64,000 nt of DNA, from IMG/VR virus record IMGVR_UViG_3300011112_000003, positions 8,079 to 72,078 of that record; one strand, 5' to 3'. The position numbers and the translations under genes are program-made. Source of the stretch: a virus. Positions 16,115 through 63,180 of this stretch are shown here, piece after piece. Under the pieces are notes generated by a model. The model had not been told where the DNA came from. It searched no databases and was given only the letters and a program-made list of their open reading frames with translations. Each line of letters starts with the position of its first letter. Position 1 is the first letter of the stretch.

Positions 16115-16137
16115 CGTACTCCCCAGTGTTGCACGGC

Positions 16138-16315: not shown

Positions 16316-17413
<1,098 letters not shown>

Positions 17414-19003: not shown

Positions 19004-19023
19004 GCCTAGCTATATCGGATAAG

Positions 19024-24700: not shown

Positions 24701-25411
24701 ACCCACCCCGTATCGGATACTCAGCTCGCGGGCGGCTCGAAGGGCGGCGCAGTCGCGAGCTGGATAGCCGTCGCGATGGCGTTGGTCACCGCATGCCGGT
24801 TGCTCCAGTCGATCTTGTCGCGATCAATCACAATCTTGGCGTGGTCGTAGGCCGCTCGCGCGATGACTTGCGCATCGTCGTTCAGGTCGAGCGGCTTGTA
24901 CCCCGGGGCGAAGCCGAGGAACGCCGCGCTCACCGCCATCTTGAAGCAGCCGTACCTGACCTGCGCGGGGATGTCTGGGCCTTGCGAATCGATATAGTTC
25001 TGGAGCATTTCAATGTAGCTGCGCACCGCCTGATCCATCACGCCGTCCCACGTGCGTCCCATCGAAGGCTGCGGGGCGCCTGCCCCCTGGTAGATCTGCC
25101 GCATACCGTCGGGGAGCTGCGAAGCTGTCGAGGGCGGGGTAGGATACTTGTGGGGGAACTTGGCTGGGGGGAAGCGCCCTCGAACCACGTTATCCTTCTT
25201 TGGGGTTTCGTCGTCGCTCACGGGTCTATCAATCCATCGAGATCCACCATGCCCCCGGCAGCATCCAGCACAGCCTTCGCGCACGCCTCCCACGCGGCCT
25301 TCTGCCGGTCGTTGATGCCCACCGCCCAGTTGCCCGAGTTGCTCCAGTGCTGCTGCATGAACGCCTCGTAGGCAATCTGGCCGGGTGTGTGCGCGACTTC
25401 CTCGGGCTTGC

Positions 25412-30917: not shown

Positions 30918-31547
30918 GGGTTCTCTCTGTCGGATAGGGGGAGCAACGCAGGGTGAACCGCAGGTACCGGCGCATTGCTGGCCACGCGGTCATCGTCGGG
31001 GTCTTTCCGGATCAGGCAGCCCTGCGGCGGAGAACCATCTGTATGCACGTCACCCATCCGATCGCCGAGTGTGAGCTTGGGATGGCCACAGAACCCCAGT
31101 TCCGGGCCGTGAGCTTTTCGCCCGACACCGCGTACGTAGGGGCAGCCGCCGCAACTGTGGATAGTCATGCTATGCCTCTATCGGATAAGAATGCCTGCGC
31201 GGTTGAAATCGCAGCATCAAGATCTCCGAGGTCCCCAGCCGCACGGGACCGGATGTCGGCCAGTAGTTCTGGAAGCTTGCGGGCTGCTAGCAACCGGAAC
31301 GACCACTGGGACTTCGTGAGGGCGGTGGGTTCCATGTCAGCAACCCGCATTTCCTGCCCTGGGGTGTGGGGCTTTCTCCTGATGTAGAGCCCCCATACGT
31401 GCTCGTGCCTCTCCCATGTCAGGTCAACGCCGTCCTCTAGCCGGACCACGCCCCGGGCGCCCAGGTTCAATGTGTACAGACGCGATGATGCAGCGATGAG
31501 TGCTTCGTCCAGGCGTTTGCGCGCAGCCTGTACGGCGCCCCTCGCGT

Positions 31548-36860: not shown

Positions 36861-38746
36861 GTGCTCCTACTAGTAGCGGATAAGACTCAAGCGCCCCACA
36901 CCGGGCCCCCGTACAGCTTGTGCTCTCGCGTCGTCGCCCCGCAGTCCTGGCATGTGGTGATCTGCGCCACCCCTCCCGACACTTCCGGATCGAGTAGCGT
37001 CTTCCGCCAGCAAGCCATCCTCGGGTGCTCGCAGGGCCGTCCCGCACGCCGCCGGATGCGCATGTGCCTCGCGTACCCCCGGGCGTCCAGGCCCCGCGTG
37101 CTAGCGATCACTTCCGCCTCGCATACTCCCGCCAGCGCTGGCCCAGGCGCACGCCCGGCGTCCTACGCGGTGGGTGCAGCGGCGCTCGGACCTCAGGCGG
37201 GAAGCGGTAGGGATCGCGGGCGCACGACGTCAGGTCCAGGCGCAGCTGTTGGATGCCCACGCGCAGGTCTTCGCGGTCGATCAGGGTTTCTGCGTATGCG
37301 TGGTCGACGCCCGTGACGAGGATAAGCACATCCTTCCCCGTGAAGGTGCAGCGGTAGTTCGTGATCATCCCTCCGCCATTATCCGCGCAATCGCCTCTAT
37401 CTGCTTATCAGTCGCTTCCCGACACACGTCCGCCGCTACCCGAGTACGCAGCTCAGTGGGCGACTCGAACTCCAGTGTGACCTTCCACTCGCGCACCTGC
37501 ATGGCCAGCTGCGCAAGGCTGCGCGGTAGGATAAGCATACCGTCACCACACCAGTCCGATCCGCAGGGGGGCTCGAAGGCCGTGGGGCCGAACGCACCCT
37601 TCACGCGCACGCCCCGTCTACCGTCGCGTGGCATCAACTCGTATCCGTGGGAACGGGGAAAGAACTTCAGGTCTATCTTCATATCACCCGCCACATGATC
37701 AGCGCCATTAGGTAGCCCGCCAGCCAGCACAGCATGAACGCCAGCGCTATCACCTTCGAGCCGATGCGCTCGTGCAGATCCGCTATCTCTTTGTTGCGCA
37801 GCTCCACCGCGGCCTCAAGTGCCACGATCGCCTGGTCGGGGTCGCGAGTGATCCGCGAGTAGCCGAGGATGTCGGTGTTCGTGCGCAGTGCGAGTAGGCC
37901 ACGGTGGCTCGGGTCGCGGCACACCAGGATATCGGTCATTCCCCGTCCACCCAGTCGATGACAGCCGCTGCCAGACACAGGCACAGGAACATGATTCCGA
38001 GTACGAGTGCCGTGATCATTTCTGGGGTGATCATTCGCTCACCCAGCGCAGGCCACACCAGATGCGCTTGCACTCATCGCACTGCGCCGCAACGGGTACG
38101 CCATGACGCTGCTCCAGCGGGCTCGGCTCCATCTTCGCACCACACAGCGTAGGGCCGTTGCGGCCGCGGTGCCAGGCGTACACGGGCTTGTCTTTCATCG
38201 GATCGCCGTCGCCCAGCTTGTTCGATACCCAGTAGTCCATGTCCGCTTGGGCTTCCGCGAGCTTGTTGATATCGACCCACAGGGCGTTCGGGAACCCGTA
38301 GTGGCCGCTCGGGATAATGCGGCCGCCTGCGCGAGCGAGCATGAGCTTGGCCAGCTCGGATAGCCCCGCGTCGAGCTTCTTCTCGCTCATGCGTATCCCC
38401 TCCGCGCCAGCGTGATGCATGTCGCCGCGAGTAGCGCCAGTTGGATATACTCTTGGATCGTCATCGCTTGCCTACTCCTGCTGTAGCGGATAACCGTGCT
38501 CTGAATGAGCCGTAGATCCGGATCGCCCGTTCGAGCCCATCCCAAGGCGCCTGTGAGTCCCCCTGGCGATACGGCGGGATATCCAGCACCGCATGCGCCG
38601 CCATCCGCACGCGGTGCTCTGCGCCGGGGGTACGAAGCACGCGGTACGAGGCGTCCTGCAGGCCCTCCCCCCGCTGTCTGCCCAAGCACTTGCTGGCCCG
38701 GTCGTAAAGCCGCTGCCCCTCCAGTACTAACATCGCCTATCCCTTC

Positions 38747-38926
38747 TCATCGCCTACCCTCCACGACGTCCTTCGCCCACTGCCGCATATCGTCGAGCCA
38801 CCGCTGCGCCTCAGGCGACACGACGCGCACAACCGGCGCCGGGTCTCCGCGCATCACGCGCATGAGCTTCGCATAGTCTGTATTGGATAGGCCTGTAGTC
38901 CCCACGATGTGCAGGCGCCCTGCCAT
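38747..38926 (-). CDS. Leader-family protein (dispersed member)
   Basis: MAGRLHIVGTTGLSNTDYAKLMRVMRGDP. Confidence 0.65.
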   Translation of the reverse strand: MAGRLHIVGTTGLSNTDYAKLMRVMRGDPAPVVRVVSPEAQRWLDDMRQWAKDVVEGRR

Positions 38927-38928
38927 TA

Positions 38929-39153
38929 CTACGCGCTGCCTGTGTGGACGGCGTTGATGACTGTGCCCTCCACAGGCGCCAAGGACTCGCCATCGGAGAG
39001 GGACCCGCCAGTACCATCGGGCCGCTTGTACGTCACGGTCAGTTGCTGGCCAGGTTTGCGGGCCAGGGCACACACGGTGGAGTAGGGCAACGGTACGTCG
39101 TCGAGCACGTAGTTCATCCCGTTGATTGCCATCTCTACTGTCGGTTTTGCCAT
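38929..39153 (-). CDS. Ubiquitin-like (multiubiquitin-domain) protein
   Basis: 'VEMAINGMNYVL...LPYSTVCALA....LTVTYKR...GGSLSDGESLAPVEGTVINAVHTGSA' fits the bacterial multi-ubiquitin beta-grasp pattern. Confidence 0.7.
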   Translation of the reverse strand: MAKPTVEMAINGMNYVLDDVPLPYSTVCALARKPGQQLTVTYKRPDGTGGSLSDGESLAPVEGTVINAVHTGSA

Positions 39154-39439
39154 TAGCTCGTTGTCTTTCTTGTTGCCTGTGATGTGCAGCCGCGTCACTG
39201 CACCAACCTGATACGGTCCGTCTTCGGGATAGCCACTGACTCAGGGACCACACCGGTACCCATGAGCGCTTGCGCATCCTCGTCGAACCACAACCCAGTC
39301 AGCGTGCCGATGCGCTCGCCTGCGTCGTTGCGGATGCCCTCGTCGATGACTCCCTTGGCGGCCGACTCGCGTAGCGTATCCGCCGGCCACTCGTCGGAGA
39401 CTGTGATCAGGATCATCGTGACTTTCTTGTCTGTCATCG

Positions 39440-39889
39440 CTAGTCCGCCGTTATCCGCGTCAGCTCTATCGGCGGGAAGGACCAGGACTCTCCCTCATCG
39501 TCCACAACGTCTATGTACGGGTATTCGTCCAGCGCCACTTGGTCAACGGCCACAATGAACTCTCGGTTGCCGGAGGTCTTTACGCGCTCGCCCTTTTTGA
39601 GTAAGGCGCAGGATATCCGCGTGTAGCCGTCCTCGAACGCCTTCGCGGGCGAGTAGGCTGTGTAGCCATCCGCATCCTCGTAGACCACGTAGTAGCCGCC
39701 AACCTCGACCAGCGAATGCGCGGCAAGCCACTTCGCGCTTACCTGAACAGTGATCTCCGACAGCTCCCCCTCCAGTTCCAGAACCACAGCATCGTCGCAA
39801 GGGCTCTGCTGCATGCCTATGATCTTCGCCGCCTTGACCTCCTTGTGGCAGCGGTACTTGGATAGTGCTGTTGTCCTTATGTCGCTCAT
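39440..39889 (-). CDS. Paralog of 20480..20935 with a C-terminal SH3-like extension
   Basis: 'KYRCHKEVKAAKI...GGYYVVYEDADGYTAYSPAKAFEDGYTRI'. Confidence 0.65.
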   Translation of the reverse strand: MSDIRTTALSKYRCHKEVKAAKIIGMQQSPCDDAVVLELEGELSEITVQVSAKWLAAHSLVEVGGYYVVYEDADGYTAYSPAKAFEDGYTRISCALLKKGERVKTSGNREFIVAVDQVALDEYPYIDVVDDEGESWSFPPIELTRITAD

Positions 39890-39895
39890 TCTTTG

Positions 39896-40360
39896 TTATC
39901 CTCGCAGACTGATTAGATACTCGACGGTCTGGCCCTCGTCCACGATCATCTTCAGGAGCGTGCGCACCATCGCGATGCTGATCGTTCCGTCCTTGACCCG
40001 GTCGAGCGCCACGCCCATCTGCTCCTGTAGGAAGTCCACGGTGACCGCGTGCGTACGGCATGCAGGGTTCTTCAGTTCGGCCTCGACCTGCGCGGCCGCC
40101 CCGGGGTGCAGGGCCATCAACTCCGGGATGGAGCAGTGCATGCCTGTGTGGTCCTTCGGTCGCTTGCAGGTGGCGCCGTCCTTGCGCTCGTTGCATAGCG
40201 TCACAACCTCCAACTCGGCCGCACTGAACTCGGTCGCATCGAACTCCACACCACCAATCGTCACGGTGGACTCGGGTTCCATCGGCGGCGGGCACAGCGG
40301 GCAATGGCTGCCTGGCATCCCGTGATAGTCGTGCGTACACCCCTGCCCAAGTAGCGCCAT
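39896..40360 (-). CDS. Protein with a C-x5-HxGxH module
   Basis: CKRPKDHTGMH. Confidence 0.55.
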   Translation of the reverse strand: MALLGQGCTHDYHGMPGSHCPLCPPPMEPESTVTIGGVEFDATEFSAAELEVVTLCNERKDGATCKRPKDHTGMHCSIPELMALHPGAAAQVEAELKNPACRTHAVTVDFLQEQMGVALDRVKDGTISIAMVRTLLKMIVDEGQTVEYLISLRG

Positions 40361-40714
40361 CTCAACCCTCCGTACCTTCGGGCCATTGCTCTTCACAGCG
40401 TGGCCTATATCCCAGCATCTCTTCCACGAACGAGTTCGCCTCCAGCTGCTCCAGCGTCTGTCGCGCATTCAGCACGATCAACCCGAGTGCGTTCTCCCTT
40501 GAGCCGTCACAGTGCTTGTATAGGATAGCGTTGCCGTAGCGCACGCCGCGGTGTCGCGCGGTCCACTGCCTGCCTTCGTACTTGCGGCACTCGGAAATCT
40601 CGAACTCCCGCACGCGGGCCATCCCCAGCACGCGCAGCAAGTCGCGCGGGACGTGGGCGGTGCCTATGTCTGCCGCGGCGTTTGTGATGTCTCGGCCGCG
40701 CCTCTTGGTGCCCA

Positions 40715-41326
40715 CTACCCATCCCTCCCTGGGATAGCGAACACCGCCCGCTTGATCTGCTCCCACTCGGTGCAAGGCCCGCATCCGCGCGGCACTGATG
40801 GATCCGTGGCGCTGGGGTCGTGCTTGTGGTCCGACAGATGCACGAGCCGGGCACGCTCCGCTGCGAGTGCTCGGGCGACGCTGTTGACCGCCTCGGTCAC
40901 CTCCCCCAGTTCGCCGAGTGCTGCGCGGGCTGCGGCGATGTCCGGGGCGCTCGGCGGCTCGGGGATGTTGGTCAGGTCGGGCGCCTCCACCGCTACGCAC
41001 GTAACATCCTCGACAGTGAAGCACGGCGGGTCCAGCCCCATCACGCGCGAATACGCCTCGATCGAGTCGTGCTTCCGTGGTCCCGCCTGATAGGCCGCTC
41101 GGTACGCCCTCCGCTCGATCTCCTGCATGTTGTCCCACACCTGCACCTCGCGACTCGGGTAGCGCATGATGCCCTCAGCCAAGGCGCGGGGGCCAACGTC
41201 AGACTGCAGAGCCTCTTCGATCGAGGCGTATGACCGCAGAGCCCTCTCGAAAGTCATCTTGACTGTGAGCGGCGTTCGCTCAGAGTCGGGCACCTCGGCG
41301 TCGATGGTCGTTGGCGTCTTGGTCAT
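40715..41326 (-). CDS. Hypothetical protein
   Basis: 203 aa, coupled to neighbours. Confidence 0.6.
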   Translation of the reverse strand: MTKTPTTIDAEVPDSERTPLTVKMTFERALRSYASIEEALQSDVGPRALAEGIMRYPSREVQVWDNMQEIERRAYRAAYQAGPRKHDSIEAYSRVMGLDPPCFTVEDVTCVAVEAPDLTNIPEPPSAPDIAAARAALGELGEVTEAVNSVARALAAERARLVHLSDHKHDPSATDPSVPRGCGPCTEWEQIKRAVFAIPGRDG

Positions 41327-41841
41327 CCTATCTTCACCTTCAGCCCTAGTAAGGCGCTGTGATAATCAAACTCCGGGTCAGCCCGCTTCGCCGCACTGAC
41401 GTCGAGACATGCCTGGAAATGCGCATCATCCATGTGTCTCCAGTGCTTCGGCATGTCGACCATCGGGATTTTGTGAACGGACGCATAAAGCGCCATGGCC
41501 TCATCGGAGAGCCGGGTCTTCATCGACGCCGTCACTGAATAGAGGTCGACGGACCCGCCGTCACCGACGCGGGCGGACAACACGTACATCACGTCGTCTT
41601 CGTCCTCTTCCTTGCGGACGAATGCGTCTTGCTTCGAGAACGACACCCCCTTGCGGAGATCGCGGAACCCCACCGCAACCTCAGTGAGGTCTCCACATCT
41701 CACCATGCCGGCTAGCAGTTCGCCAATGTCCCACGGCCAGCAGCACGTCTTAGAGTCGGGCACCTCCGCGCTTTCGGTAGTCGAGTCGATCTTGTTCTTG
41801 CTTGGCTTGTTCACCGGGTCGGTCTTCGAGGGGTCGGTCAT
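41323..41841 (-). CDS. Hypothetical protein
   Basis: 172 aa. Confidence 0.6.
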   Translation of the reverse strand: MTDPSKTDPVNKPSKNKIDSTTESAEVPDSKTCCWPWDIGELLAGMVRCGDLTEVAVGFRDLRKGVSFSKQDAFVRKEEDEDDVMYVLSARVGDGGSVDLYSVTASMKTRLSDEAMALYASVHKIPMVDMPKHWRHMDDAHFQACLDVSAAKRADPEFDYHSALLGLKVKIG

Positions 41842-43576
41842 TTCGGTTCTTTCTCCAGATGCCCTTGTAGGCTCGGTGCAGCATCGAGAACGCGAGTGGG
41901 AACTGCATCATGATAAGCTTGCGCTCGTACAGGTAGAGCCGCGTCAGCTCGGCCGCGTTCTCGATCGGCGCGGTCTGCGCGTAGGGACTCACGAACCCTT
42001 CCCGCTTGCTGACCCCGAACAGTTTCTTGTGCCATTTGATAACCGGCGCTTCTCCACCCCAGCAGTACATGAGCCACACGTTCAGGGAGTGGCCCAACTC
42101 GTGTTCCAGCACATGCTTCAGGCGTGCCAACGGTAGTGTACCGGATACTCGGATTTCGTTGCCGGTCCAGTAGGCGAGGTCGTGGTCCTCCATGGCGTTG
42201 TCGACGCGCGGTTGGTCTTCGCAGATAAGCGTGACACCCACGCGCCTGTCGAATATCTCGGGAGGCGTTCGGTCTATCACCGCCTGGGCCACAGACAGCT
42301 TCTGCGGATCACCTATGCGGATGGCGCAACCACGCTCGGGCACGACGTTCCCCCAGGTCAGGTGCGCTTTGCGTAGGTCGCCCGGTAGCAGCTGCGAGCG
42401 CAACAGACTCTGCGGCATGAGATCGCCATCTTCGTTGAAGCCCCAGCCGTTCGGTACATGGATAAGTTCGCAAGAACACCAAGGGTGGATAGGGCCTATC
42501 GTCGCTTGCCACGCGCTTTGCTTCTTACCGACGTTCGTGCCGTTCGCCTGTAGCTCGGACAGCTTGAAGATACGCAGGGGCGAGCCTTCACCGGAGGTGT
42601 AGTGAAGGGCCACGCACCTCGGACAGGCGCCGGGCGATGGTTGCTTCGCCACATTGATTTCGTCTGGGTCGCCCTCGCGTTCGATGAGCCCTGCGGTGAG
42701 CCCCTGCTGCATGGCGCTCTGCTTCTCGGTTGCTGAGATACGCTTGAAGTCTCGCGCCCAGTCCTGCGTGCGGTGCCCGAGGTCGCTCGCCAGCTTCCGC
42801 CAACTCTCCTGGCGCTCGATGTTCATATCCAACTCGTCGCGCACATCCGCCTGATATTTCGCGCGCAGCACAGCATCCGCCTCGACCGCGATGGTACTGA
42901 AGTCGTCGCCCACTCGGTTGCCCAGGCCTACGATGGTGTTCGCCGCATTGCCCGATGCCCAGGTGCGCGCGGCCTGCTCTTGGGTAGATAGGGTTGGGTC
43001 GCCGTACTTGGTGCGCCAGGGGTCCACGCCCAAGGTTGCCGCCTGTCCGCGCAGTTGCGGATCGCGTCCCATGGATATCCCGTAGTTGTACGCATCCGCG
43101 ATGGCCTGCGCGCTCGGTGGGGCAGTCTCGCCGGGCTCGGCCTGGTAGCTGGCCTTCATGTCCTGTGGGAGCACGCCGCTGTCGATGAGCCGCTGGATAT
43201 CCGCAGCGTCCACGTACTCCCCGCCCACCTGCGTCGCGATGAACGCTAGGTGGTAGTCGTTCACGATCCTGCGTATCTCCCGCAGGTGCTCCGGGTTGGC
43301 GATGGGGTCGTAGGGGCCCTCCGCCTTCTTCAGGCTATCATGGACTATCTTGGACTCCGCGTAATCGCGGATAACGCTGAGCATCTTATCTAGTTGCTTG
43401 CGGTATGCGCGCTCGAACTGCTCCGCGGACTGCTGCATTGCCTTGTAGTGCTGGAAAGTCCGCTCGGAGTACTTCACGCGCTCGGCTTTCAAGAGATACT
43501 CCGGGCCCATCACGTACTGCGCGAGTTCTAGGCGGTCCATGTCTGCTGGGGCGTCTATTGAGATATGTTTGGTCAT
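41750..43576 (-). CDS. MuF / SPP1 gp7-like head morphogenesis protein with C-terminal zincin metallopeptidase domain
   Basis: 'RDFKRISATE', 'ACPRC', 'GPIHPWCSC' (MuF); 'LEHELGH' (HExxH) plus 'FVSPYAQTAPIENAAE'. Confidence 0.85.
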   Translation of the reverse strand: MTKHISIDAPADMDRLELAQYVMGPEYLLKAERVKYSERTFQHYKAMQQSAEQFERAYRKQLDKMLSVIRDYAESKIVHDSLKKAEGPYDPIANPEHLREIRRIVNDYHLAFIATQVGGEYVDAADIQRLIDSGVLPQDMKASYQAEPGETAPPSAQAIADAYNYGISMGRDPQLRGQAATLGVDPWRTKYGDPTLSTQEQAARTWASGNAANTIVGLGNRVGDDFSTIAVEADAVLRAKYQADVRDELDMNIERQESWRKLASDLGHRTQDWARDFKRISATEKQSAMQQGLTAGLIEREGDPDEINVAKQPSPGACPRCVALHYTSGEGSPLRIFKLSELQANGTNVGKKQSAWQATIGPIHPWCSCELIHVPNGWGFNEDGDLMPQSLLRSQLLPGDLRKAHLTWGNVVPERGCAIRIGDPQKLSVAQAVIDRTPPEIFDRRVGVTLICEDQPRVDNAMEDHDLAYWTGNEIRVSGTLPLARLKHVLEHELGHSLNVWLMYCWGGEAPVIKWHKKLFGVSKREGFVSPYAQTAPIENAAELTRLYLYERKLIMMQFPLAFSMLHRAYKGIWRKNRNDRPLEDRPGEQAKQEQDRLDYRKRGGARL

Positions 43577-43773
43577 GGCAGCATGCTTCCCATCCCGCAA
43601 CCGAAGTTCCGCAGCTTGGCCTCGGCTCTCGTGATGCCCTCGCGGTCAGCCCGCTCCTGGTGGATGTCCCGCCCCGGGCTCTTGGTTGGGAGGTAGATCC
43701 GAGGCAGTCCTCGCGCTCCCCTGTTCCTCCGCATGCGGATGGCAAAGGCTTCGTTGGATAGGTTCTTAGTCAT
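43573..43773 (-). CDS. Leader-array protein 1
   Basis: MTKNLSNEAFAIRMRRNRGA; stop overlaps the MuF ATG. Confidence 0.75.
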   Translation of the reverse strand: MTKNLSNEAFAIRMRRNRGARGLPRIYLPTKSPGRDIHQERADREGITRAEAKLRNFGCGMGSMLP

Positions 43774-44099
43774 GAGTCCGATACCAATGATAGGGGGATG
43801 TTGATTGTCTTCGAGAAGATAACGAGGTCGCTCAGGCGCATGCTGACTTCGACGACTCCCGGTGATGTCTCGACCACCTCCGCAGACACCACCCCAGGCA
43901 TGGCCTCGACGCTCTTCTTGATGCCTCCCACAGTGGGCTTCCGCCATGGCCCTGCGCCCAGCATCAAGGCCTCCCACTGCTCAATGAACTCCGCGTACTG
44001 CTCCCCCTTTGTCATGACCGGTACACGGATCAGTCGCGGCTCTCCACGTTGCTCCCGCATACGATCTGCGTAGTCGTCGTTGGATAGGTTGTTCGTCAT
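43770..44099 (-). CDS. Leader-array protein 2 (baseplate-J/POTRA-like body)
   Basis: MTNNLSNDDYADRMREQRGE; body IKKSVEAMPGVVSAEVVETSPGVVEV. Confidence 0.75.
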   Translation of the reverse strand: MTNNLSNDDYADRMREQRGEPRLIRVPVMTKGEQYAEFIEQWEALMLGAGPWRKPTVGGIKKSVEAMPGVVSAEVVETSPGVVEVSMRLSDLVIFSKTINIPLSLVSDS

Positions 44100-44103
44100 T
44101 ATC

Positions 44104-44400
44104 TTAGGCCGTGTCCATACGTATCGTGAAGGACTGAATACTAGGCGCAGGGTCTCGGAGCCGCAGCTCGACGATGACCTCCCCTGGCACCCCACGAGTC
44201 ACCTTCGCACTCTCCACTCTGGGCATGCGTGCGGCAGCTTCTTTGATGTCGCTCAATGTCGGCGCCGGGGGGCGGAACAGCCCCGGCGAGAAGGCGCGGA
44301 TGTCTAGTAGGGGTGTGGACGACACCGGGAGCTTCGGTGGCTCCCCCCGTTGACGCCGGGCATGCTCGGCGAACTCCCTGTTGGATAGATCGTTGGTCAT
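44104..44400 (-). CDS. Leader-array protein 3 (baseplate-J/POTRA-like body)
   Basis: MTNDLSNREFAEHARRQRGE; body IKEAAARMPRVESAKVTRGVPGEVIVEL. Confidence 0.75.
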   Translation of the reverse strand: MTNDLSNREFAEHARRQRGEPPKLPVSSTPLLDIRAFSPGLFRPPAPTLSDIKEAAARMPRVESAKVTRGVPGEVIVELRLRDPAPSIQSFTIRMDTA

Positions 44401-44777
44401 GTCTTGTACTCCCGGATCACAGACTGCTTCGCGCCAAAATCCCATCCCAGGTAGTAGGTTGACCGTCGGTCGTAGTCGCGGGCCTCCGGGTTGGTCTTCA
44501 GGGGCTTCATGGGCATGCATACGGGTCGGTGGGTGTCCATCCAGCGCAAGGCTTGGATGTCTACCTGGCCTCGACTGAACCACGCCGCTCCTGGCTCTCT
44601 CCATGCCCGCTGTAATGCGGCTATCTCAGCATAGGCATCGGACAGGAGCATCACACGGCGGCCCCCTTGCTCGTCGTCGTACTCCAGTACGCAGTTGTCC
44701 GGCAGTGGGTAGAGTCTGAGTCCTGCGATCAGGATGTTGGTGCGGCCCTCCATCGGGGCTCTGGGATGTCTGGTCAT
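44397..44777 (-). CDS. Hypothetical protein inside the array, lacking the leader
   Basis: ATGA-coupled on both sides. Confidence 0.6.
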   Translation of the reverse strand: MTRHPRAPMEGRTNILIAGLRLYPLPDNCVLEYDDEQGGRRVMLLSDAYAEIAALQRAWREPGAAWFSRGQVDIQALRWMDTHRPVCMPMKPLKTNPEARDYDRRSTYYLGWDFGAKQSVIREYKT

Positions 44778-45148
44778 ATCTGCCTTCCAAGGTTCTGCCA
44801 GCCATCGGGCTCATGGTACTTGAGGAATGTGACGCGCCATAGGTCGGGGCCCGCCTCGCCCACGTGTAGCTTCACGTGGCTCACCAGTTCGCTCAGGTGG
44901 ACTACGCAATGGGACTTGTTCGAGATAGGCGAGCCGCGCTCGTCGGTGGGGCGCAATAGGATGCAGTCCTTAGGCAGTCCGATATCCTTTGCGAACTGCG
45001 GTAGCTCCGTGTGCTTGGGGGTCCAGGCGAGTACCCACATGGTGCGTCCGCGGATGGGTGGCGGGGCCTGCCCTCGCTTACACCGTTGGCGGCTGGCGAA
45101 GTCTTCGTTGGATAGACCTCGGGTCATGCGGTCCTCGATGTGCTTCAC
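44774..45148 (-). CDS. Leader-array protein 4
   Basis: (MKHIEDR)MTRGLSNEDFASRQRCKRGQ; GPDLWRVTF. Confidence 0.75.
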   Translation of the reverse strand: MKHIEDRMTRGLSNEDFASRQRCKRGQAPPPIRGRTMWVLAWTPKHTELPQFAKDIGLPKDCILLRPTDERGSPISNKSHCVVHLSELVSHVKLHVGEAGPDLWRVTFLKYHEPDGWQNLGRQI

Positions 45149-45606
45149 GTAGCGTACCCATCACAGGGCGTGACATGGCTCAGCCCCGCCAGCCCACATG
45201 CTGCATGGACTACCGACTGTAGGACTATGTTTTCCCTGCGCTCGCTGGCGTAGGGCTGGCGGTTGAGTTGGATAAGGCGGCCTTCAGGGCTCACCATGTT
45301 GACCGTGTACTGGTCGTCGTCATTGCCGGAACCGGGCCCGCTGAGCAACCCCGCGTTCAATGCCTTGACGTTCAGGAACGGACCGAAGCCATCGGAGATA
45401 AAGGCATGCTCCTTTTTCTCTGCATCCCACAGCGCCCACCTACCCGTGGCGATAGCGATGCTGTAGGTAAGCCTGTTTAGGTCGAGGGTCACTAGCCCGC
45501 CGGCTAGGCACTGTGTCATGACGACGGGTGGCCAGAACAATTGAGGCTCCCCTCGCCTCTCACGCATACGACTGGCAAAGTCTTCGTCGGATAAGTCTTG
45601 AGTCAT
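45145..45606 (-). CDS. Leader-array protein 5
   Basis: MTQDLSDEDFASRMRERRGE. Confidence 0.75.
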   Translation of the reverse strand: MTQDLSDEDFASRMRERRGEPQLFWPPVVMTQCLAGGLVTLDLNRLTYSIAIATGRWALWDAEKKEHAFISDGFGPFLNVKALNAGLLSGPGSGNDDDQYTVNMVSPEGRLIQLNRQPYASERRENIVLQSVVHAACGLAGLSHVTPCDGYAT

Positions 45607-45977
45607 AGCCGCTTGATGTCCAAGGTGGAGTGGTCGCCGGGGGGCACGATGGCATTCCTGCATTTCAGCTGAATCCGCGTAGGTACGTCGAACACCCAAG
45701 TCCCCCACAACCGCACAACTGCCGCCGGGCCACGCGCGGGGTGTGCGCTCGCAATAAAAATCCCTGTCGTGGCGTTGCTGAGATGCAGCGATGGAACAGC
45801 GCCTTCGTCACCCCAGCCCAGCATGGCCATGGCCGTGATCCTGTAGCTGCCGGGCGAATGGATGTCCGCACTCAGCAGCGTCTGCCACATCGGTGATTGC
45901 TGCTGCTGCTTCGGCAGTTCCCCCCGCTGCGCTCTCATGCGCTCGGCGTACGCTTCGTTGGATAGGCTTTGAGTCAT
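45603..45977 (-). CDS. Leader-array protein 6 (beta-sandwich body)
   Basis: MTQSLSNEAYAERMRAQRGE. Confidence 0.75.
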   Translation of the reverse strand: MTQSLSNEAYAERMRAQRGELPKQQQQSPMWQTLLSADIHSPGSYRITAMAMLGWGDEGAVPSLHLSNATTGIFIASAHPARGPAAVVRLWGTWVFDVPTRIQLKCRNAIVPPGDHSTLDIKRL

Positions 45978-46306
45978 TTCGATGGCTCGCAGCCAGGCCT
46001 GAACGTGACTTGCCAAATGTCCGGCCCGTCATCGCTCACTTCCACTTCATCCGCGTGGCTCCAGTGGCTCTCATGGACTGCCCGGAACCGGGCATCCGGT
46101 AGGGCAGCTCCCCTAGCGTCGCATTCGAGCATCACGACGAAACCATTCTCAAAGCCGGGGCTCGGACGGAATTCCTCGGGCAGATCCTTGTGATGCCTGC
46201 GCCACACCTGCATGCGGACTGGGCCCCGGCCCAATCGCTTGGGCGGCTCTCCCCTGTTGCTCCGCATGCGCGCCGCATAGCTGCTGTTGGATAATGCACG
46301 GGTCAT
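45974..46306 (-). CDS. Leader-array protein 7
   Basis: MTRALSNSSYAARMRSNRGE; GPDIWQVTF. Confidence 0.75.
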   Translation of the reverse strand: MTRALSNSSYAARMRSNRGEPPKRLGRGPVRMQVWRRHHKDLPEEFRPSPGFENGFVVMLECDARGAALPDARFRAVHESHWSHADEVEVSDDGPDIWQVTFRPGCEPSK

Positions 46307-46767
46307 CGGCGCGGCCGCTGCGTGATCTGCGCGTCTCCCACCGCCATCGCTTCGGCAAGATCTGTTACCCCCTGCTTTACTGTGATGGTGGCGATCAACA
46401 CCGCGGACATCAAATCGGGGTGCTCGACGTATGGCTCTGTATCAAAGGCAACTGCTGCTTCAGAGAGAGAGTCGTACACCACGAGCCCGTACACTGCGGT
46501 TGTGATGCCCTCCTTCCGCCAGTGGTACACCCGCTGGTTGTGGAACTTGCCTTCCGGAACGGGTACGGGCTCGGGCGCCCACGGGGGTTGGTAACGCTCA
46601 GGATCTATATCCTCACCCCGCTCGCCCCGAAAGGTCAGGTCACCGTCCGCGTTGACAAATGCGCAAGTCAACCCGGGCAACTCAGGCAGTCCCAGCGCCA
46701 GTGGCGATTCCCCACGCTTCCCACGCATGAGATTGGCGAATGCTGCGTTAGATAGGCCCTGGGTCAT
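46303..46767 (-). CDS. Leader-array protein 8 (body similar to a domain of the 1033-aa virion protein)
   Basis: MTQGLSNAAFANLMRGKRGE. Confidence 0.75.
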   Translation of the reverse strand: MTQGLSNAAFANLMRGKRGESPLALGLPELPGLTCAFVNADGDLTFRGERGEDIDPERYQPPWAPEPVPVPEGKFHNQRVYHWRKEGITTAVYGLVVYDSLSEAAVAFDTEPYVEHPDLMSAVLIATITVKQGVTDLAEAMAVGDAQITQRPRR

Positions 46768-47123
46768 ACCATCCACTTCCCCATGCTCGTAGTCCAGCCC
46801 GGCGGGGTGAGTCCGGGCAGGAAGGATATCTCGCAGATGTCGGGCTGCTCTGGCAGCAGGCTCCGGGCCTTGAACTTGAACCGCGCCTCATCCAAATCGG
46901 TCCAGGGCACCACAAATCGTTGGATGCTTCGGATCCACGCCCCGTTATCCCACACCATCGTGACCATCATCTCGTCTTCGCCTATCTCGCCCCATGGGCA
47001 GCCCACCGGCAGTACGTGCGTGCTGCAGTGCATGGTCGCTTGGAACCACCAGCGTCTGATAGGTTCTTCGCGTTTGCTCCGCATGTGGTTGGCGAACGCA
47101 TTGGGGGATAGGTCTTGGGTCAC
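46764..47123 (-). CDS. Leader-array protein 9
   Basis: GTG start, MTQDLSPNAFANHMRSKREE; QPDICEISF. Confidence 0.72.
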   Translation of the reverse strand: MTQDLSPNAFANHMRSKREEPIRRWWFQATMHCSTHVLPVGCPWGEIGEDEMMVTMVWDNGAWIRSIQRFVVPWTDLDEARFKFKARSLLPEQPDICEISFLPGLTPPGWTTSMGKWMV

Positions 47124-47497
47124 AGGCGCCCGTACTCTTCCACGAGCAGTCGCGGTGATCCGCCGCGCACCAACCCCCCAGTCACCCGCATGTATATCTT
47201 GCGGTCCATGGCCCATGCGTATCGATCGCTGAGCGCCATGGTGTGCCATTCATCGGCGGGCACCGTCATGCGTATCTCCTGAAGCAGACCCGACATATCA
47301 TACAAGCTGAGGATGACTTCGCCCGGGCCCCGCACAATGACACTGACCGTCACACAGTAGGTGTTCCCATCGCCCGGTACGATGGCCTCACCCAGGTTGT
47401 TGATATTGAACTTTGGGGCGGGCAAGCGCATCAGGGGCTCCCCACGGCGCGCCCGCATGTGATTCGCATAGCGCAGGTTGGATAGGCTTTGGGTCAC
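47120..47497 (-). CDS. Leader-array protein 10 (paralog of 11)
   Basis: GTG start, MTQSLSNLRYANHMRARRGE. Confidence 0.75.
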   Translation of the reverse strand: MTQSLSNLRYANHMRARRGEPLMRLPAPKFNINNLGEAIVPGDGNTYCVTVSVIVRGPGEVILSLYDMSGLLQEIRMTVPADEWHTMALSDRYAWAMDRKIYMRVTGGLVRGGSPRLLVEEYGRL

Positions 47498-47892
47498 GCG
47501 ATGGGCTCCACGAGTATGCGCCACGATCCTTCGCGCACCGTACCCCCGGTCACGCGCAGGTAGATCTTGCGGTCCGAGCTGCAGGTGTAGTGATGGCGGA
47601 GCCCCACGACGCGCCACGAGTCGCTGTCCAGATCCTCGCGCCAATCCTCCAGCATGCCCGCCCTGTCGTACAGCCCTACGATGACGGCGCTGGGGCCCTT
47701 CACCCAGAGGGAGCCCTTCACGTGGACATGCGCCATCACGCTGTATGTCCTCATGTCCCCCGTGATCGTGGCCTCTGCTACGTTATTGATATTGAACGGC
47801 TGTTGGATAGGAGCGGGCTCCGGTGGCTGCCCGCGGAGTAGGCGCATGTGCTCGGCGTACGCCCCGTCGGATAAGGTCGTTGTGTCTACCAT
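47494..47892 (-). CDS. Leader-array protein 11 (paralog of 10)
   Basis: MVDTTTLSDGAYAEHMRLLRGQ. Confidence 0.75.
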   Translation of the reverse strand: MVDTTTLSDGAYAEHMRLLRGQPPEPAPIQQPFNINNVAEATITGDMRTYSVMAHVHVKGSLWVKGPSAVIVGLYDRAGMLEDWREDLDSDSWRVVGLRHHYTCSSDRKIYLRVTGGTVREGSWRILVEPIA

Positions 47893-48284
47893 TCGCTGCA
47901 CGCTATGACTGTAGGGTTGGGGCCGGGCGTGTTCAGGAACGCGGTCCACATGTTGGTGACTCCCTTGTCCTCATCATCGTGATATTTGATGGTCAGTGCT
48001 TCGATGCGCCCGATCGAACTCGTCTCGCATTGCGACTCACGGCCCCAGTCCAGCTCCTCGGCGCTTTTCCAGGCCAGATCCGTCACAGCCGCCATGTCGG
48101 TGGTGTCGCCGCCTATCCACCACCGCACGTCCTCAATCTCCACCACGAACAATGTGTAGCCCTGCCTGTGGTGCCGCTCGCGCATCGGGTCGCTATGGAT
48201 AAGGCCTGCCTGCACTTGCCGCCTGCGTATCCTGAAGCGCACCGCGAGCGCATCGTTGGTGAGGTGGCGCGTGTCGTAGGGCAT
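47886..48284 (-). CDS. Leader-array protein 12 (divergent leader)
   Basis: MPYDTRHLTNDALAVRFRIRRRQ. Confidence 0.65.
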   Translation of the reverse strand: MPYDTRHLTNDALAVRFRIRRRQVQAGLIHSDPMRERHHRQGYTLFVVEIEDVRWWIGGDTTDMAAVTDLAWKSAEELDWGRESQCETSSIGRIEALTIKYHDDEDKGVTNMWTAFLNTPGPNPTVIACSEW

Positions 48285-48286
48285 TA

Positions 48287-48859
48287 CTACGCCAAACTCA
48301 GGGTGTGCCGGTGGAACGCGACGTCCATGGGGGCGAGGTACCAGAAGGTCAACGACACCACGGCCGTGTCTCGACTCTTCTGGTCGATATCCCCGACCTG
48401 GACTTCACGTATCTCACGGATGGCGGGTATGTCGCACAGCGCTACCAGCATGTCCCGCTCGGTAGGCTTACGTTCGGATATCACGTCCACCGAGCCCGAC
48501 CACTGGCGCCAAGTGCGCATGTCCGGCCGTAGCACGAACGGCACGCGCGAGAAGTCTACGTCGATTCCGTGAATGTCCGGCCAATAGCTGATCATGGTTC
48601 GCTGTTGGCCCGATGTGCTGGTGACCGTGCGGACCTTCAAGACCATGCTCGGGTTCCCAGGCAGGCCCGTGCCTAGGAGGGCCACAACCGAGCGTAGGAT
48701 ATCGTCTGGGTCTGCATTGGTGTCGAGGAAGCGATCGGCATGCACAAGCGCAACGCACCCCGCCCATACACGCGCGCCATGAGGGATGGGATCCAGCGGG
48801 TGCTTGCGAGTCGCACGCATGTGGCGCGCGAAGTCCTGATTGGATAGCGCGAGGGTCAC
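48287..48859 (-). CDS. Leader-array protein 13
   Basis: GTG start, MTLALSNQDFARHMRATRKH. Confidence 0.72.
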   Translation of the reverse strand: MTLALSNQDFARHMRATRKHPLDPIPHGARVWAGCVALVHADRFLDTNADPDDILRSVVALLGTGLPGNPSMVLKVRTVTSTSGQQRTMISYWPDIHGIDVDFSRVPFVLRPDMRTWRQWSGSVDVISERKPTERDMLVALCDIPAIREIREVQVGDIDQKSRDTAVVSLTFWYLAPMDVAFHRHTLSLA

Positions 48860-49110
48860 CCCCACCTCGCGCCAGATGCGCGCGCCCGCTCGCGCTCGCT
48901 CAGCTGGGATATGCCTGGCTTTGAGCGGCATCGCTTGCACACGGGGTTCATGTTCTTCGCGCGGTACTTGCGGCCGCACTCGTCACAGCGTGGCCAGTTG
49001 GCTCGCTTGTCTGGTCCCTTGACCTGTTTCTCGCGCACGCACCTCTTCACGCGCATGCGCTGAGCAAAGTCTTCGTCGGATAGGCCGCGCGTTGCTGAGT
49101 CGTTGTTCAC
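48856..49110 (-). CDS. Leader-array protein 14 (Zn-ribbon body)
   Basis: GTG start, MNNDSATRGLSDEDFAQRMRVKR; CDEC..CKRC. Confidence 0.7.
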   Translation of the reverse strand: MNNDSATRGLSDEDFAQRMRVKRCVREKQVKGPDKRANWPRCDECGRKYRAKNMNPVCKRCRSKPGISQLSERERARASGARWG

Positions 49111-51959: not shown

Positions 51960-51982
51960 GCCCACGCTATATCGGATAAGAG

Positions 51983-53290: not shown

Positions 53291-53332
53291 GCCCTACTTT
53301 ATCGGATAGGCCCCCCCGATCAGTGTAGAGCT

Positions 53333-56306: not shown

Positions 56307-58028
56307 CTACCCCGGGCAAGAGCATACTGCGTAGTGCTGGTGACCGATCTGCTGCTTGTGGGGGTCGCCGTGACGGACACACCCCGCGCTGTAGTTGGCC
56401 TTGACGATCGGGTCATTGCCTAGTGGGTATCGGATACGGCTCAAGCTCATGCGGCGTACCACACCGGTCGTGTCCACCTCGTCGCCCCTGAAGTTGACCA
56501 TCTTCGGGCCCTTGCGGAGCGTCAAATCCCGCGTCGCTAATGGGTCGGAGCCCATACTCGCGATCAAGGATTCCGAGCCCGGCCCGATCTGCGGGTTGAC
56601 CCCCATCGCCGCAGCACTGTCACGGGCATCGCTCCACTTGTCTCCGTGGTCCGTGGAGCCATCGCTCATCGGCTTGACCATCCCCTTCAGGCGCATGATC
56701 TCTGCCACCGCCTGAATGGTGATAGAGAACTTGCGCGACGCGCGCGCAAGGTTCGGGTTCCTCGGGATGTACGCGATGATCTTGTGAAAGACGGGCATCG
56801 CAATGTTCTCGTACATGTCTTCGCCCGCGACAGGGTTGCGGTGCTCGGGCTCGCGCATCTCGTGTGCGTAGGCAGCTGCGATAAATCCGCACAGATAGCT
56901 GTAGAGCAGCCCCTCGGCGATGGGGCTTGGGTTGGATACCGCCGATAGGTCGTAAGTGCCAAGCCCCTTGCGCAGCACGAGCCGGTCTCCCTCCTGGACG
57001 TAAGCATCCAGATCGCCAGGCGCCAACTCGCACAGCTCCTCTTGGTGCTCATCGCCGGGCGTGGCCGTGCCGCCCTTCACGAGCGCGCCGAGTGCATCAA
57101 GCGCATCGCCCGGGCCGCCGCTCCGGCGCATACCGTACATGCGCTCGTATTCGGCAACCTGCGCAGCCACCTCCGGGCCCGACGCGGGGTACTCCATGCC
57201 GTTGCGGCTGGTGCCCGTCCTGGGGGGCTCGACGCCCCGCGGCAGGCTGGGATCCATGATGTCCGCCAGCTTGCCAATCATGTCGGGTTTCTTGTCGGGC
57301 GGGCCGTCGCCAACCTTGGGCTCTTCCTCTGGCTGGCCGGGCTTGCCCACAGGCTGCTCGCCTCCCTGGCCTGGACCGGGCTGTCCCTGCATCGCGGGAT
57401 GACTACCCCCGTTCTTGCCCTTCACGCTGTGGTGCGACGGAGGCGCCTGCGGCCCTTCGTCCTCGCCCTGGTGCGCGCTGTGGTCGTCGAATGCCGCCTT
57501 GTGGGGCCCGCCGTCAAAGTGGTGGCGCTCGGCGTGCTTGACCGCACCCTGCACCAGTTCCTTAGGGATCTCCGTGCCGCTCAGCCCCTGTTTTCTCGCC
57601 GCCTTCCACTGCTTGAACGCCGCGTAGTGCTCCGAATCCTGTGGTAGCTCCCAGTGCGCGCCCTCGCCCGTCTCATCGCTCACCACGAACCGCACATCCT
57701 GGTCGCGTTCCTCGGGGCCCTGGTAGATGAACTCGAACTCTTTCGTCTCGGGGTTCGTCACCTTCGTGGCGTACTGGATGGAGCCCTTATCGGGGTCTGC
57801 GCCCGGCGTCGCCATGGCACCTGACTTGCCCTCACCAGGCTTCGCGACCTCAGGCGCCTCGGGTACGCCACCCTGGCCTGCGGTGCCTGGTGGTTTCGGG
57901 GGCCCACCACCCTGGGGCGCCATTTTCTTCGCCCCGCCCGGCGCGGTGTCCGTCGAGTCATTGACGTTGTTGCCCTTCCCGGTCGGAAAAGCCTTGGCGA
58001 ATGAGCCCAGTGATTCGATGGCGTCCAT
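56307..58028 (-). CDS. Large Pro/Gly-rich protein, probable internal head protein
   Basis: 573 aa between terminase and portal; FAKA, LVKG, LRKG (x2), IVKA sites. Confidence 0.65.
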   Translation of the reverse strand: MDAIESLGSFAKAFPTGKGNNVNDSTDTAPGGAKKMAPQGGGPPKPPGTAGQGGVPEAPEVAKPGEGKSGAMATPGADPDKGSIQYATKVTNPETKEFEFIYQGPEERDQDVRFVVSDETGEGAHWELPQDSEHYAAFKQWKAARKQGLSGTEIPKELVQGAVKHAERHHFDGGPHKAAFDDHSAHQGEDEGPQAPPSHHSVKGKNGGSHPAMQGQPGPGQGGEQPVGKPGQPEEEPKVGDGPPDKKPDMIGKLADIMDPSLPRGVEPPRTGTSRNGMEYPASGPEVAAQVAEYERMYGMRRSGGPGDALDALGALVKGGTATPGDEHQEELCELAPGDLDAYVQEGDRLVLRKGLGTYDLSAVSNPSPIAEGLLYSYLCGFIAAAYAHEMREPEHRNPVAGEDMYENIAMPVFHKIIAYIPRNPNLARASRKFSITIQAVAEIMRLKGMVKPMSDGSTDHGDKWSDARDSAAAMGVNPQIGPGSESLIASMGSDPLATRDLTLRKGPKMVNFRGDEVDTTGVVRRMSLSRIRYPLGNDPIVKANYSAGCVRHGDPHKQQIGHQHYAVCSCPG

Positions 58029-61754: not shown

Positions 61755-62159
61755 CTAGGGACTCATCAGCCCATTTCCCGCTGGGATAACGATCTGCGCC
61801 CCGTCCACGATGACTTTCCGTTCCTCAGCACAGTAGAACTGCCCATCAGTACAAATCAGGAAACCAAGTTCCTTGGCACCCCCTGGCAGCCTCGGATGCG
61901 GGTTATCTAGCAAGCCCGCGAGCACTTCATGCAACGAGCGGTGCTTGGGGATCGCCACTTCCCGCTTCCCGCCGCCCGCGTAGTGTGTGCATCGAAGTGA
62001 CGTCAGCTCACCCAAGAACTTGAGCCGCCCGGGCAGGCTGAGATCCAGTGGCATCGCGGGCGCAGGCAGCGGGGGCACTGGAGCGTCGAGCCCCGCACGC
62101 CGCGCTTTCATGTACGCCGCATACGAGGTGTTATCCCACGACCGCGTGTCTGCCCTCAC
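61755..62159 (-). CDS. Leader-family protein (dispersed member upstream of terminase)
   Basis: MRADTRSWDNTSYAAYMKARRAG. Confidence 0.6.
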   Translation of the reverse strand: MRADTRSWDNTSYAAYMKARRAGLDAPVPPLPAPAMPLDLSLPGRLKFLGELTSLRCTHYAGGGKREVAIPKHRSLHEVLAGLLDNPHPRLPGGAKELGFLICTDGQFYCAEERKVIVDGAQIVIPAGNGLMSP

Positions 62160-63139: not shown

Positions 63140-63180
63140 TGTCGTCTCTCCCTGCTGCTATACGTATATCGGATAGGATT

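Follow-up and report, generated by a model that had tools for sequence, protein, structure and literature searches.

A second, nucleotide-level constraint on the Leu-Ser codons of array leaders in an uncultivated phage

What keeps the codons of one dipeptide nearly fixed in a family of small phage genes that otherwise vary freely in their synonymous codons? This question is raised by a tandem array of about 14 small genes in a 64-kb stretch of DNA (here called the window) from the 72,078-bp virus record IMGVR_UViG_3300011112_000003 (GC content 62.6%). 13 of these genes start with the leader MTxxLSNxxFAxxMRxxRGEP, the one without it being the open reading frame (ORF) 44397-44753, and a fourteenth copy of the Leu-Ser leader lies detached in the gene 38926-38747. 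The codons of Leu and Ser in these leaders jointly create the word TATCC. Gene-based counts refer to 123 minus-strand genes from our own calls (periodic-GC and codon log-odds models, curated), which are approximate, especially at about 51.9-50.2 kb; 4 short plus-strand calls were excluded. With these genes on the minus strand, the TATCC of an earlier sequence-only reading of the window corresponds to the sense orientation. Products were assigned by PHROGs and Pfam scans, in which no sigma factor, methyltransferase or integrase and no family for any of the small leader genes turned up.

The sequence-only reading had claimed that Leu-Ser in the leaders is always written YTA-TC(C/T), mostly as part of TATCC[AG]A, and that such Leu codons should be unusual at this GC content. 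Indeed, all 14 Leu-Ser leaders read YTA-TCY (11 with CTA and 3 with TTA; 13 with TCC and 1 with TCT), and 12 of them contain TATCC[AG]A, the exceptions being TATCTAA (46750-46754) and TATCCCC (47106-47110). With the leader codons excluded, YTA accounts for 214 of 1696 Leu codons (12.6%) and TCC for 200 of 1158 Ser codons (17.3%). When the codon pairs of all Leu-Ser dipeptides were tabulated, YTA-TCC was found in 10 of 103 dipeptides outside the leaders versus 13 of the 14 leaders (Fisher p = 2e-10). The pair is therefore not the usual one elsewhere, and the signal is leader-specific; by our own reading, at least 4 of the 10 non-leader pairs overlap with other TATCC elements or with a leader-like copy. 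The paralogs are old: the mean pairwise nucleotide identity of the leaders over 69 nt is only 58%, and the invariant residues Thr2, Ala11, Arg15 and Arg18 are written with 4, 4, 4 and 5 codons, respectively, which argues that the spelling does not stem from shared ancestry. Moreover, the first base of the Leu codon can be C or T while its third base is fixed, and the constraint thus acts on the word TATCC rather than on a codon or a tRNA.

At the protein level, a profile of the first 35 leader residues, run against 1.84 billion representatives, matched 31 proteins at E <= 1e-3, of which about 19 are not from this genome. These non-self matches carry the leader at the same N-terminal position and differ in their C-termini, and ten that were looked up came from one contig each and from several kinds of source. 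As judged by eye, Leu is nearly invariant among the matches and the next residue is mostly Ser, otherwise Asp, Gly or Thr. This indicates that Leu-Ser is also a protein-level feature of the leader family.

A search with the portal protein gave 41 related viral contigs and one contig (L047) of a metagenome-assembled genome (G001), and a leader-profile search of G001 gave further contigs. Joined by synteny, the contigs C276, L047 and C157 (65.9 kb) of G001 appear to represent a sister phage, to which 57 of the 123 proteins match in the same gene order, with identities of 92% for the major head protein and 86% for the portal. The array of the sister phage has only three leader ORFs before the MuF-like gene, and its two Leu-Ser leaders both read CTA TCC (C157:2410, CTATCCGATATC; C157:3142, CTATCCAAC). 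The leader at C157:3142 belongs to the ortholog of the 44099 cassette (68% identical as a protein), and its Thr2 and Ala11 are written with other synonymous codons than there. In both phages together, 15 of 16 leaders have TCC, compared with 30% of the TCN codons elsewhere (P = 2e-7), which suggests that TATC alone is insufficient. The word is missing from diverged or dispersed leader copies, which read CTT TCG (C270) and CTA AGT (C276) in the sister phage, CTG AGT in L014 and TTA TCA in L010. It is therefore tied to the array-type leaders of this lineage and not to the whole peptide family. We conclude that the Leu-Ser codons of the array leaders are under a second, nucleotide-level constraint. 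In this respect the earlier proposal of a dual protein/DNA code stands, as the third bases of Leu and Ser are fixed while other invariant residues vary, and as this is kept in the sister phage. The accompanying suggestion of an operator or recombination site within each cassette found no such backing, with no inverted-repeat or attC-like structure going with the cassettes and no integrase in the family scans.

The same core had been reported for an element upstream of genes, and this was borne out. TATCCG[AC][TC]A occurs at 17 sites, 16 of them inside the window, and 12 of the 17 are exact copies of TATCCGATA, for which 0.1-0.3 would be expected. An ATG follows 9-11 nt after 11 of the 17 sites and 13-29 nt after three more; at site 38492 the distance is 19 nt. 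A is found at position +10 in 13 of the 17 sites and G is frequent at +11, while nothing is conserved upstream. The genes behind the element are non-structural (i.e. helicase, thymidylate synthase, HNH endonuclease and many unknowns). TATC-N3-TA is present 29 times on the sense strand, as opposed to 10 and 4 times for the controls TATC-N4-TA and TATC-N2-TA. Measured from our gene starts, the start positions of TATCC form two clusters, one of 12 sites at -22 to -18 and one of 9 sites at +13. When positions are scored with a weight matrix derived from the 17 intergenic sites, the leaders come 19th to 245th among about 72,000, the best (rank 19) being that of the detached copy at 38885..38890, where the word extends as TATCCAATAcAG. 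In addition, Glu8 is encoded by GAA in 5 of 5 leaders (25% elsewhere), which mirrors the A at +10 and the G at +11 of the element.

The position of the element is conserved in orthologs, although the relatives share it only in the form TATC-N3-TA. The spot before the 53290 gene reads TATCCGATA here, TATCCAGTA in L047 and TATCGGGTA in the relative L010 (GC 51%); in the sister phage TATCCGGTA, TTATCAGGTA and TATCCACTA lie upstream of the orthologs of 30917, 26685 and 13100, and further TATC-N3-TA-N10-11-ATG sites are present. TATC-N3-TA precedes the orthologs of 53290, 30917, 26685 and 13100 in the sister phage and those of 53290 and 34519 in L010, and its sense-strand count is 0 in the three more distant relatives L014, L026 and L007. 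The copies in L010 have TTATCGGGTATAAT, TATAGA or TATATA, which amounts to a -10 hexamer extended at its 5' end, and are nearer to TANNNT (TATAAT, TATAGT). If the TA is taken as -12/-11, a G stands at -14 and a T at -17, and the ATG comes to lie at the place where a transcript would be expected to start. Extended -10 promoters have the same placement of G and T relative to TA. A TA-like signal about 10-12 nt before the start codon was found at 11 of the 17 sites as well as in the sister phage and L010. We therefore consider it probable, judging from these sequence features, that the element is an extended -10-type, ORF-adjacent promoter. TA-like signals about 12 nt before start codons are interpreted as -10 boxes of leaderless genes in PMC3160421 and PMC12340547.

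How could the word in the leaders relate to this element? It is possible, and we favour this tentatively, that the leaders hold, overlapping with their protein code, the 5' half of a start-proximal expression signal. In the array, the Leu-Ser codons would then contain a signal YTATCC(R)A, to be read in sense orientation and equivalent to the 5' half of the element (T)TATCCG[A/C]TAnAG. The element itself would act as an extended -10-type promoter set against the ORF, with TA about 11-13 nt before the ATG, G two bases upstream and no conserved -35, and would give very short or leaderless transcripts of non-structural genes. Array neighbours are mostly joined by ATGA or GTGA stop-start overlaps. 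Since the ATGA overlaps leave no intergenic room, the 5' half would be written through codons 5-6, 13 nt past the start, and one sequence-specific reader of TTATCC, either a phage or a host factor, would bind the leaders and tie the cassettes to the same expression programme. We would give only a low probability to the more specific proposal that TTATCC is a docking word of a lineage-specific reader and thereby sets the members of a regulon. It would be fused to a -10 at ordinary early and middle genes, forming promoters that lack a -35 and yield near-leaderless mRNAs, and would be written into the codons of a conserved targeting leader in the hypervariable array. If this proposal were true, each gained or shuffled cassette would automatically be tagged for the same control, and an expression tag and a peptide tag would share six bases.

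Several observations weigh against the idea of a shared expression signal. The leaders lack the TA of the -12/-11 pair in 12 of 14 cases and their position -14 is A in 10 of 14, mostly not G, from which it follows that the leaders are not promoters themselves. Bases 5-7 of the element vary in the sister phage (TATCCGG, TATCAGG, TATCCAC, TATCGCG); the element thus needs no TATCC as such, and this weakens its link to the leaders. The sister phage is also without a strand bias of TATCC (69 versus 71). The final T of TANNNT is present in only 3 of the 17 sites (own count), and the PHROGs and Pfam scans gave no candidate binding protein or sigma factor. Lastly, the leaders avoid G at synonymous sites throughout codons 2-8, for which an account at the RNA level is simpler.

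Such an account, a serious alternative and the foremost one although we regard it as unlikely, would make the word part of a translation-initiation signal, with a G-free unstructured tract (C-YTATCC-AAC) at +12 to +21 aiding ribosome restart. In a variant of it, the tract would be the site of an RNA-binding regulator, and the upstream UAUCCGAUA would be the same signal in short 5' regions. Starting at ATGA overlaps, the cassettes have no space for their own Shine-Dalgarno sequence; the signal is confined to the sense strand, and its two preferred places (+13 in 9 leaders, -22 to -18 in 12 other genes) are both at the edges of a ribosome footprint. The avoidance of G in codons 2-8 (Thr2 ACG 2/14, Gln3 CAG 1/5, Leu5 CTG/TTG 0/14, Ser6 TCG 0/14, Glu8 GAG 0/5), with G-ending codons being normal from codon 11 onwards (GCG 4/14, CGG 7/14, GGG 7/11), agrees with it, as does a mild genome-wide 5' effect: YTA makes up 20.7% of the Leu codons within codons 2-16 versus 11.8% elsewhere, and the GC content at third codon positions is 0.713 versus 0.781. 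However, avoidance of G would permit CTC or CTT and TCA or TCT, whereas CTC/CTT are found in 0 of 14 leaders although CTC is the commonest G-free Leu codon, and TCC is used less, not more, in early codons of other genes (11.9%). The 14 leaders have no conserved RNA structure (consensus -0.34 kcal/mol, 0 covarying pairs), and to our knowledge the word has no complementarity beyond 4 bases to the usual 16S 3' end. Furthermore, the 22865 copy is ATGA-coupled too and yet lacks the word, and twelve exact 9-mers suggest a sequence-specific reader rather than a mere lack of structure. The Met-Thr start of the leaders can be attributed to the coupling itself, because an ATGA overlap demands a second codon starting with A. 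The synonymous avoidance of G (43687-49095) can also be described as ACG 2/14, CAA 4/5 and GAA 5/5. Beyond it, Gly19 is encoded by GGG or GGA in 11 of 11 cases and never by GGC, which represents half of all Gly codons, so that a purine run GGRGAR results.

Compared with this, it is very improbable that the word is a recombination core that anchors unequal crossing-over and thereby adds, deletes and shuffles cassettes. A contig of run X2, from another sample, joins 43750 to 44077, skipping 326 nt across 14 shared bases that include TATCC, and this joint represents a natural, clean loss of one cassette between two leaders; it is a single contig with a depth of 3.3, mapped at 80% likeness. The array contains 13 leader cassettes here versus 3 in the sister phage, and the adjacent cassettes 47497 and 47892 are 72% identical across 110 nt. 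The X2 joint shows that leader repeats recombine, in the way expected of ordinary homologous exchange among repeated sequences, but a fixed 5-mer is not needed for that: such exchange needs length, and the leaders are only 58% identical. Neither inverted repeats in each cassette nor, in the family scans, a recombinase nearby were found, and selection for future rearrangement would be weak.

We give slightly less credit still to rare-codon control, in which YUA near the start would tie cassette translation to a scarce tRNA, as TTA does through bldA in Streptomyces. The scarcity of YTA among Leu codons and its use in all 14 leaders would fit, and one dispersed copy of the sister phage retains CTA with Ser changed to AGT. 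However, both CTA and TTA occur, two codons that normally have separate tRNAs. Not only the Leu codon but also the adjacent Ser codon is fixed, CTA is not particularly rare (12%, above the 7% of CTT), and the window contains no tRNA gene. The absence of any function, with the spelling inherited from a founding cassette or kept by gene conversion among these tandem paralogs, is scarcely credible, as synonymous sites elsewhere within these 69 nt are saturated, Leu itself varies in its first base, the sister phage retains the spelling, and conversion would leave long identical tracts instead of a 5-nt island.

The alternative proposal of genome-wide selection for the pentamer, by contrast, was largely explained away. 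TATCC is in fact frequent: it was counted 125 times on the sense strand versus 30-43 expected from Markov orders 0-2 and 87 from order 3 (rank 1 of 1016 pentamers), and 103 times inside coding sequences versus 40.2 +/- 5.3 in synonymous shuffles (z = 12, above every other pentamer; reached by 0 of 300 shuffles). For GGATA, which had been called frequent as well, the sense-strand count of 67 versus 55.6 +/- 7.2 is not significant (24 of 300 shuffles reach it). The excess of TATCC has four parts, namely the leaders, the start-proximal element, TATCCAAA and a generic codon-context bias for TATC[A/C/T]. In frame 1 (xTA TCC) there are 38 versus 8, 13 of the 38 being leaders. In frame 2 (NNT ATC CNN) there are 56 versus 26, and TATCA (43 versus 23) and TATCT (23 versus 11) are likewise raised, unlike TATCG (30 versus 30); the frame-2 excess is thus a codon-context bias, a T-ending codon being favoured before ATC unless G follows, and not a TATCC signal. 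After removal of the 13 leaders, the 17 sites of TATCCG[AC][TC]A and 4 of TATCCAAA, 91 sense and 83 antisense copies remain, which together with the frame-2 pattern also disposes of an oriented oligomer of the Chi or KOPS kind. The longer forms are strongly oriented (YTATCCRA 34 sense versus 5 antisense, TATCCRA 49 versus 7), and YTATCYRA occurs 45 times in the window versus 6.0 +/- 2.3 expected, 38 of them, by our own count, on the minus strand. About 5 of 14 in-gene TATCC copies are kept between this phage and L047 as judged by eye, which is not above the expectation from divergence. A role as a modification motif is unsupported, with no methyltransferase family in the scans. On the sense strand of L010, TTATC was counted 91 times versus 18 expected and GATAA 84 versus 36.

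Two dispersed copies, at 22865 and 62159, had been said to carry the reverse complement GGATA in place of TATCC. It is present there at the same codons, with TTATCC on the opposite strand in both, but the ortholog of the 62159 copy in the sister phage reads TGG GAT GAC, without GGATA. From codon use we estimate the joint chance of both copies at about 0.07, and the reversal is probably a coincidence.

Table. Positions in the window of the leaders, leader-like copies, start-proximal elements, promoter-associated words and assigned genes.
Feature	Position	Strand	Remarks
Tandem array of about 14 small genes	43573..49110	-	13 with leader
Leader CTA TCC	49078..49083	-	then GAC
Leader CTA TCC	48842..48847	-	then AAT
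Leader TTA TCC	47869..47874	-	then GAC
Leader CTA TCC	47480..47485	-	then AAC
Leader CTA TCC	47106..47111	-	then CCC (Pro)
Leader CTA TCT	46750..46755	-	single TCT
Leader TTA TCC	46289..46294	-	
Leader CTA TCC	45960..45965	-	
Leader TTA TCC	45589..45594	-	then GAC GAA G
Leader CTA TCC	45110..45115	-	
Leader CTA TCC	44383..44388	-	
Leader CTA TCC	44082..44087	-	
Leader CTA TCC	43756..43761	-	
Leader CTA TCC, detached copy	38885..38890	-	gene 38926-38747; extends as TATCCAATAcAG
Diverged leader copies	62159, 51613, 51258, 48284, 37111, 22865, perhaps 38420		
Dispersed leader copy (MTGKLDNLGFAEHMR...)	22446..22865	-	CTG GAT AAT, i.e. TTATCC on opposite strand
Dispersed leader-like copy (WDNTSYAAYMKARR)	61755..62159	-	TGG GAT AAC; just upstream of large terminase
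Element TATCCGATA	63167..63175	-	27 nt before amidase-like gene ATG (63139)
Element TATCCGATA	56428..56436	-	11 nt before ATG (56416) opening HNH endonuclease frame
Element TATCCGATA	53300..53308	-	9 nt before ATG of 166-aa gene
Element TATCCGATA	51970..51978	-	before gene at 51965
Element TATCCGCTA	36874..36882	-	13 nt before helicase ATG (36860)
Element TATCCGATA	31179..31187	-	10 nt before ATG at 31168
Element TATCCGACA	30928..30936	-	10 nt before thymidylate synthase ATG (30917)
Seven elements TATCCG[AC]TA	13111..24719 (first T at 24719, 23769, 19021, 17433, 15347, 13858, 13119)	-	ATG 9-11 nt after each, but 29 nt for 15347
Two further elements TATCCG[AC]TA	38492 and 34621		
Element variants before ATGs (weight matrix)	26704 (TTATCAGATAGAG), 20954 (TTATCAGCTACAG), 33509 (TTATCGTATACAG)		
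TATCCAAA	51043..51050	-	5 nt upstream of -35-like TTGCAG; operators GTACGTAC at 51025-51032 and 51003-51010
TATCCAAA	34957..34964	-	6 nt upstream of -35-like TTGACT; paired GTACGTAC operators
TATCCAAA	15802..15809	-	7 nt upstream of -35-like TTGACC; paired GTACGTAC operators
Large terminase	61721-59970		PHROGs/Pfam
Portal	55837-54110		PHROGs/Pfam
Head protease	10376-9684		PHROGs/Pfam
Major head protein	8545-7133		PHROGs/Pfam

The element shares with ORF-adjacent and extended -10 promoters a TA at a fixed short distance (11-13 nt) before the start, a G two bases upstream of TA and the lack of a conserved -35, and in L010 its 3' half reads TATAAT (for the concept, see PMC3160421 and PMC12340547). 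It differs from the described TANNNT and TGn motifs by the further conserved 5' extension TTATC and by the final T, which is mostly missing; the leader copies hold only the 5' extension. Among the matches listed for TATCCGATA, the literature concerned only unrelated, non-phage subjects, and among those listed for CCGATA in phage promoters nothing was relevant. In the hyperplastic regions of T4-type phages, repeated promoter elements (PeSL) flank gene cassettes. Similar to these, a short regulatory word would head each small accessory gene in a variable region, with repeats that can be crossover points; unlike them, the word lies inside a coding leader and not in an intergenic promoter, and there is no stem-loop. 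The bldA tRNA of Streptomyces controls genes via the TTA codon, and a rare Leu codon is likewise used consistently in one gene set of a GC-rich genome here; however, two Leu codons are used and the next codon is fixed too, which points to a constraint on the word. A regulon of this type with one codon and one tRNA does not fit the 11 CTA and 3 TTA leaders and the lack of a tRNA gene in the window.

Other identities were considered as well. The DnaA box is TTATCCACA and the sigma-28 -10 element is GCCGATAA; TTATCC equals the first six bases of the former, and CCGATAA/T matches 7 of 8 bases of the latter. A DnaA box (9-mer TTATNCACA) was rejected on the basis of 0 copies of TTATCCACA and 3 of CTATCCACA on the sense strand, TATCCAC in only 11 of 125 TATCC copies and A at +6 in 62 of 125. 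The 17 sites have no TAAA -35 upstream, as a sigma-28 promoter would. An integron-like array does not fit either, the 15 inverted-repeat pairs in 43400-49400 having no periodic pattern and the family scans no integrase. For IHF, a Fur-like hexamer, frameshift sites, an antisense stop codon (YTA reads TAR as its reverse complement) and base pairing between UAUCC and a GGAUA ahead of other starts, the counts or positions do not fit.

The leaders offer a clean natural case of synonymous codon choice being fixed by a second code, with the freely varying invariant residues of the same paralogs as an internal control and the sister phage as an external one. TATC-N3-TA represents a previously undescribed start-proximal element common to a small lineage of uncultivated phages, and it aids the placement of true start codons when these genomes are annotated. 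If one reader were to see both contexts, recoding of the six bases could separate the peptide function from the nucleotide function. The leader-tagged array, with its 13 leader cassettes versus 3 in the sister phage, is turning over fast and encodes proteins without a known family.

Close to the starts of genes, two further words were seen. (G)TAGG(C/T) is enriched directly before ATG (TAGG at -6 in 5 genes), beside ordinary GGAG/GAGG, and GGATAG or GATAG lies within 22 nt of the start in 13-14 genes versus 2-2.5 expected. L010 has a second repeated start context, GGAGTAGATAAAATG, which occurs 6-9 times. The leader-like motif LSDEE(F/H) is found within non-leader proteins (G001:C157:2940-2960; window 52908-52915), spelled TTA/CTA TCC GAT GAG.

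The array lies between the portal region and the gene for a 608-aa MuF-like protein (43576-41750), at the start of which it ends, and the C-terminal parts of its leader ORFs are unrelated to one another. The cassette at 45606 had no homolog besides itself among 5.8 billion proteins at near lengths. No match to 41750-49320 was obtained at the nucleotide level in GenBank phages, nor any to a 26-aa leader by tblastn, and the MuF-like protein gave no relative in viral contigs. The leader DNA pattern including the TATCC word gave 5 loci in viral contigs, all unrelated by translation and GC; without the Leu-Ser codons it gave 0 in viral contigs and 10 loci in metagenome contigs, all of them chance matches without arrays. 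Immediately upstream of the array, 49107-49865 encodes a 252-aa protein that has long GDGD repeats as well as a lipobox-like LLTGC, and the second neighbour, 50233-50979, a 248-aa protein whose N-terminus resembles a signal peptide and which has TPR repeats.

The gene for this secreted TPR protein starts downstream of the 51050 promoter, which is itself contained in a longer ORF whose N-terminus resembles the leader, and which probably also serves the array. This is one of three sigma70-like promoters (51050, 34964 and 15809) with two GTACGTAC operators each, 22 bp apart. The sequence-only reading had placed the TATCC core next to these operators, and TATCCAAA does adjoin GTACGTAC. Altogether there are four GTACGTAC palindrome pairs (51003-51032, 34915-34944, 16138-16166 and 15759-15788; 21-22 bp from start to start), three of which overlap sigma70-like promoters, and none is present in the sister phage. 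One pair precedes a 107-aa gene whose product has a weak Pfam match of the antitoxin/RHH kind and is a candidate for an autoregulated repressor. Simple scans for sigma70 promoters and terminators in 10-64 kb gave site numbers not above shuffles, and Rfam models gave 0 matches at gathering score within the window.

The DNA of the window was found in a subsurface metagenome run and partly in a sediment run, whereas no RNA run was listed as containing it. Besides the proteins mentioned, the scans identified a MazG-like protein, an exonuclease and two HNH endonucleases. The head module (window 54110-9684) is split: about 9.7 kb including the array separate the portal and a 257-aa gene from the MuF-like gene, and about 30 kb of replication and nucleotide-metabolism genes lie between the latter and the protease and major head protein. 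The sister phage has the same split, whereas 38 related viral contigs have the portal, MuF-like, protease and head genes in close proximity. One HNH gene (55841-56416) lies between a 573-aa gene and the portal gene and is missing at the same place in L047, where the flanking genes are 15 nt apart; judging from this arrangement it is a probable homing insertion. The other (10835-11329) is one of the few plus-strand genes. Finally, in the coding sequences of the whole genome AATT (4 versus 51 expected from synonymous shuffles) and TTAA (1 versus 37) are nearly missing, and CCGG (347 versus 498), CTCC (123 versus 229) and CCTCC (31 versus 72) are below expectation. The sister phage is likewise poor in AATT (11) and TTAA (5) per 81.7 kb, and the scarcity of these two words may be due to avoidance of restriction or to strong context bias.

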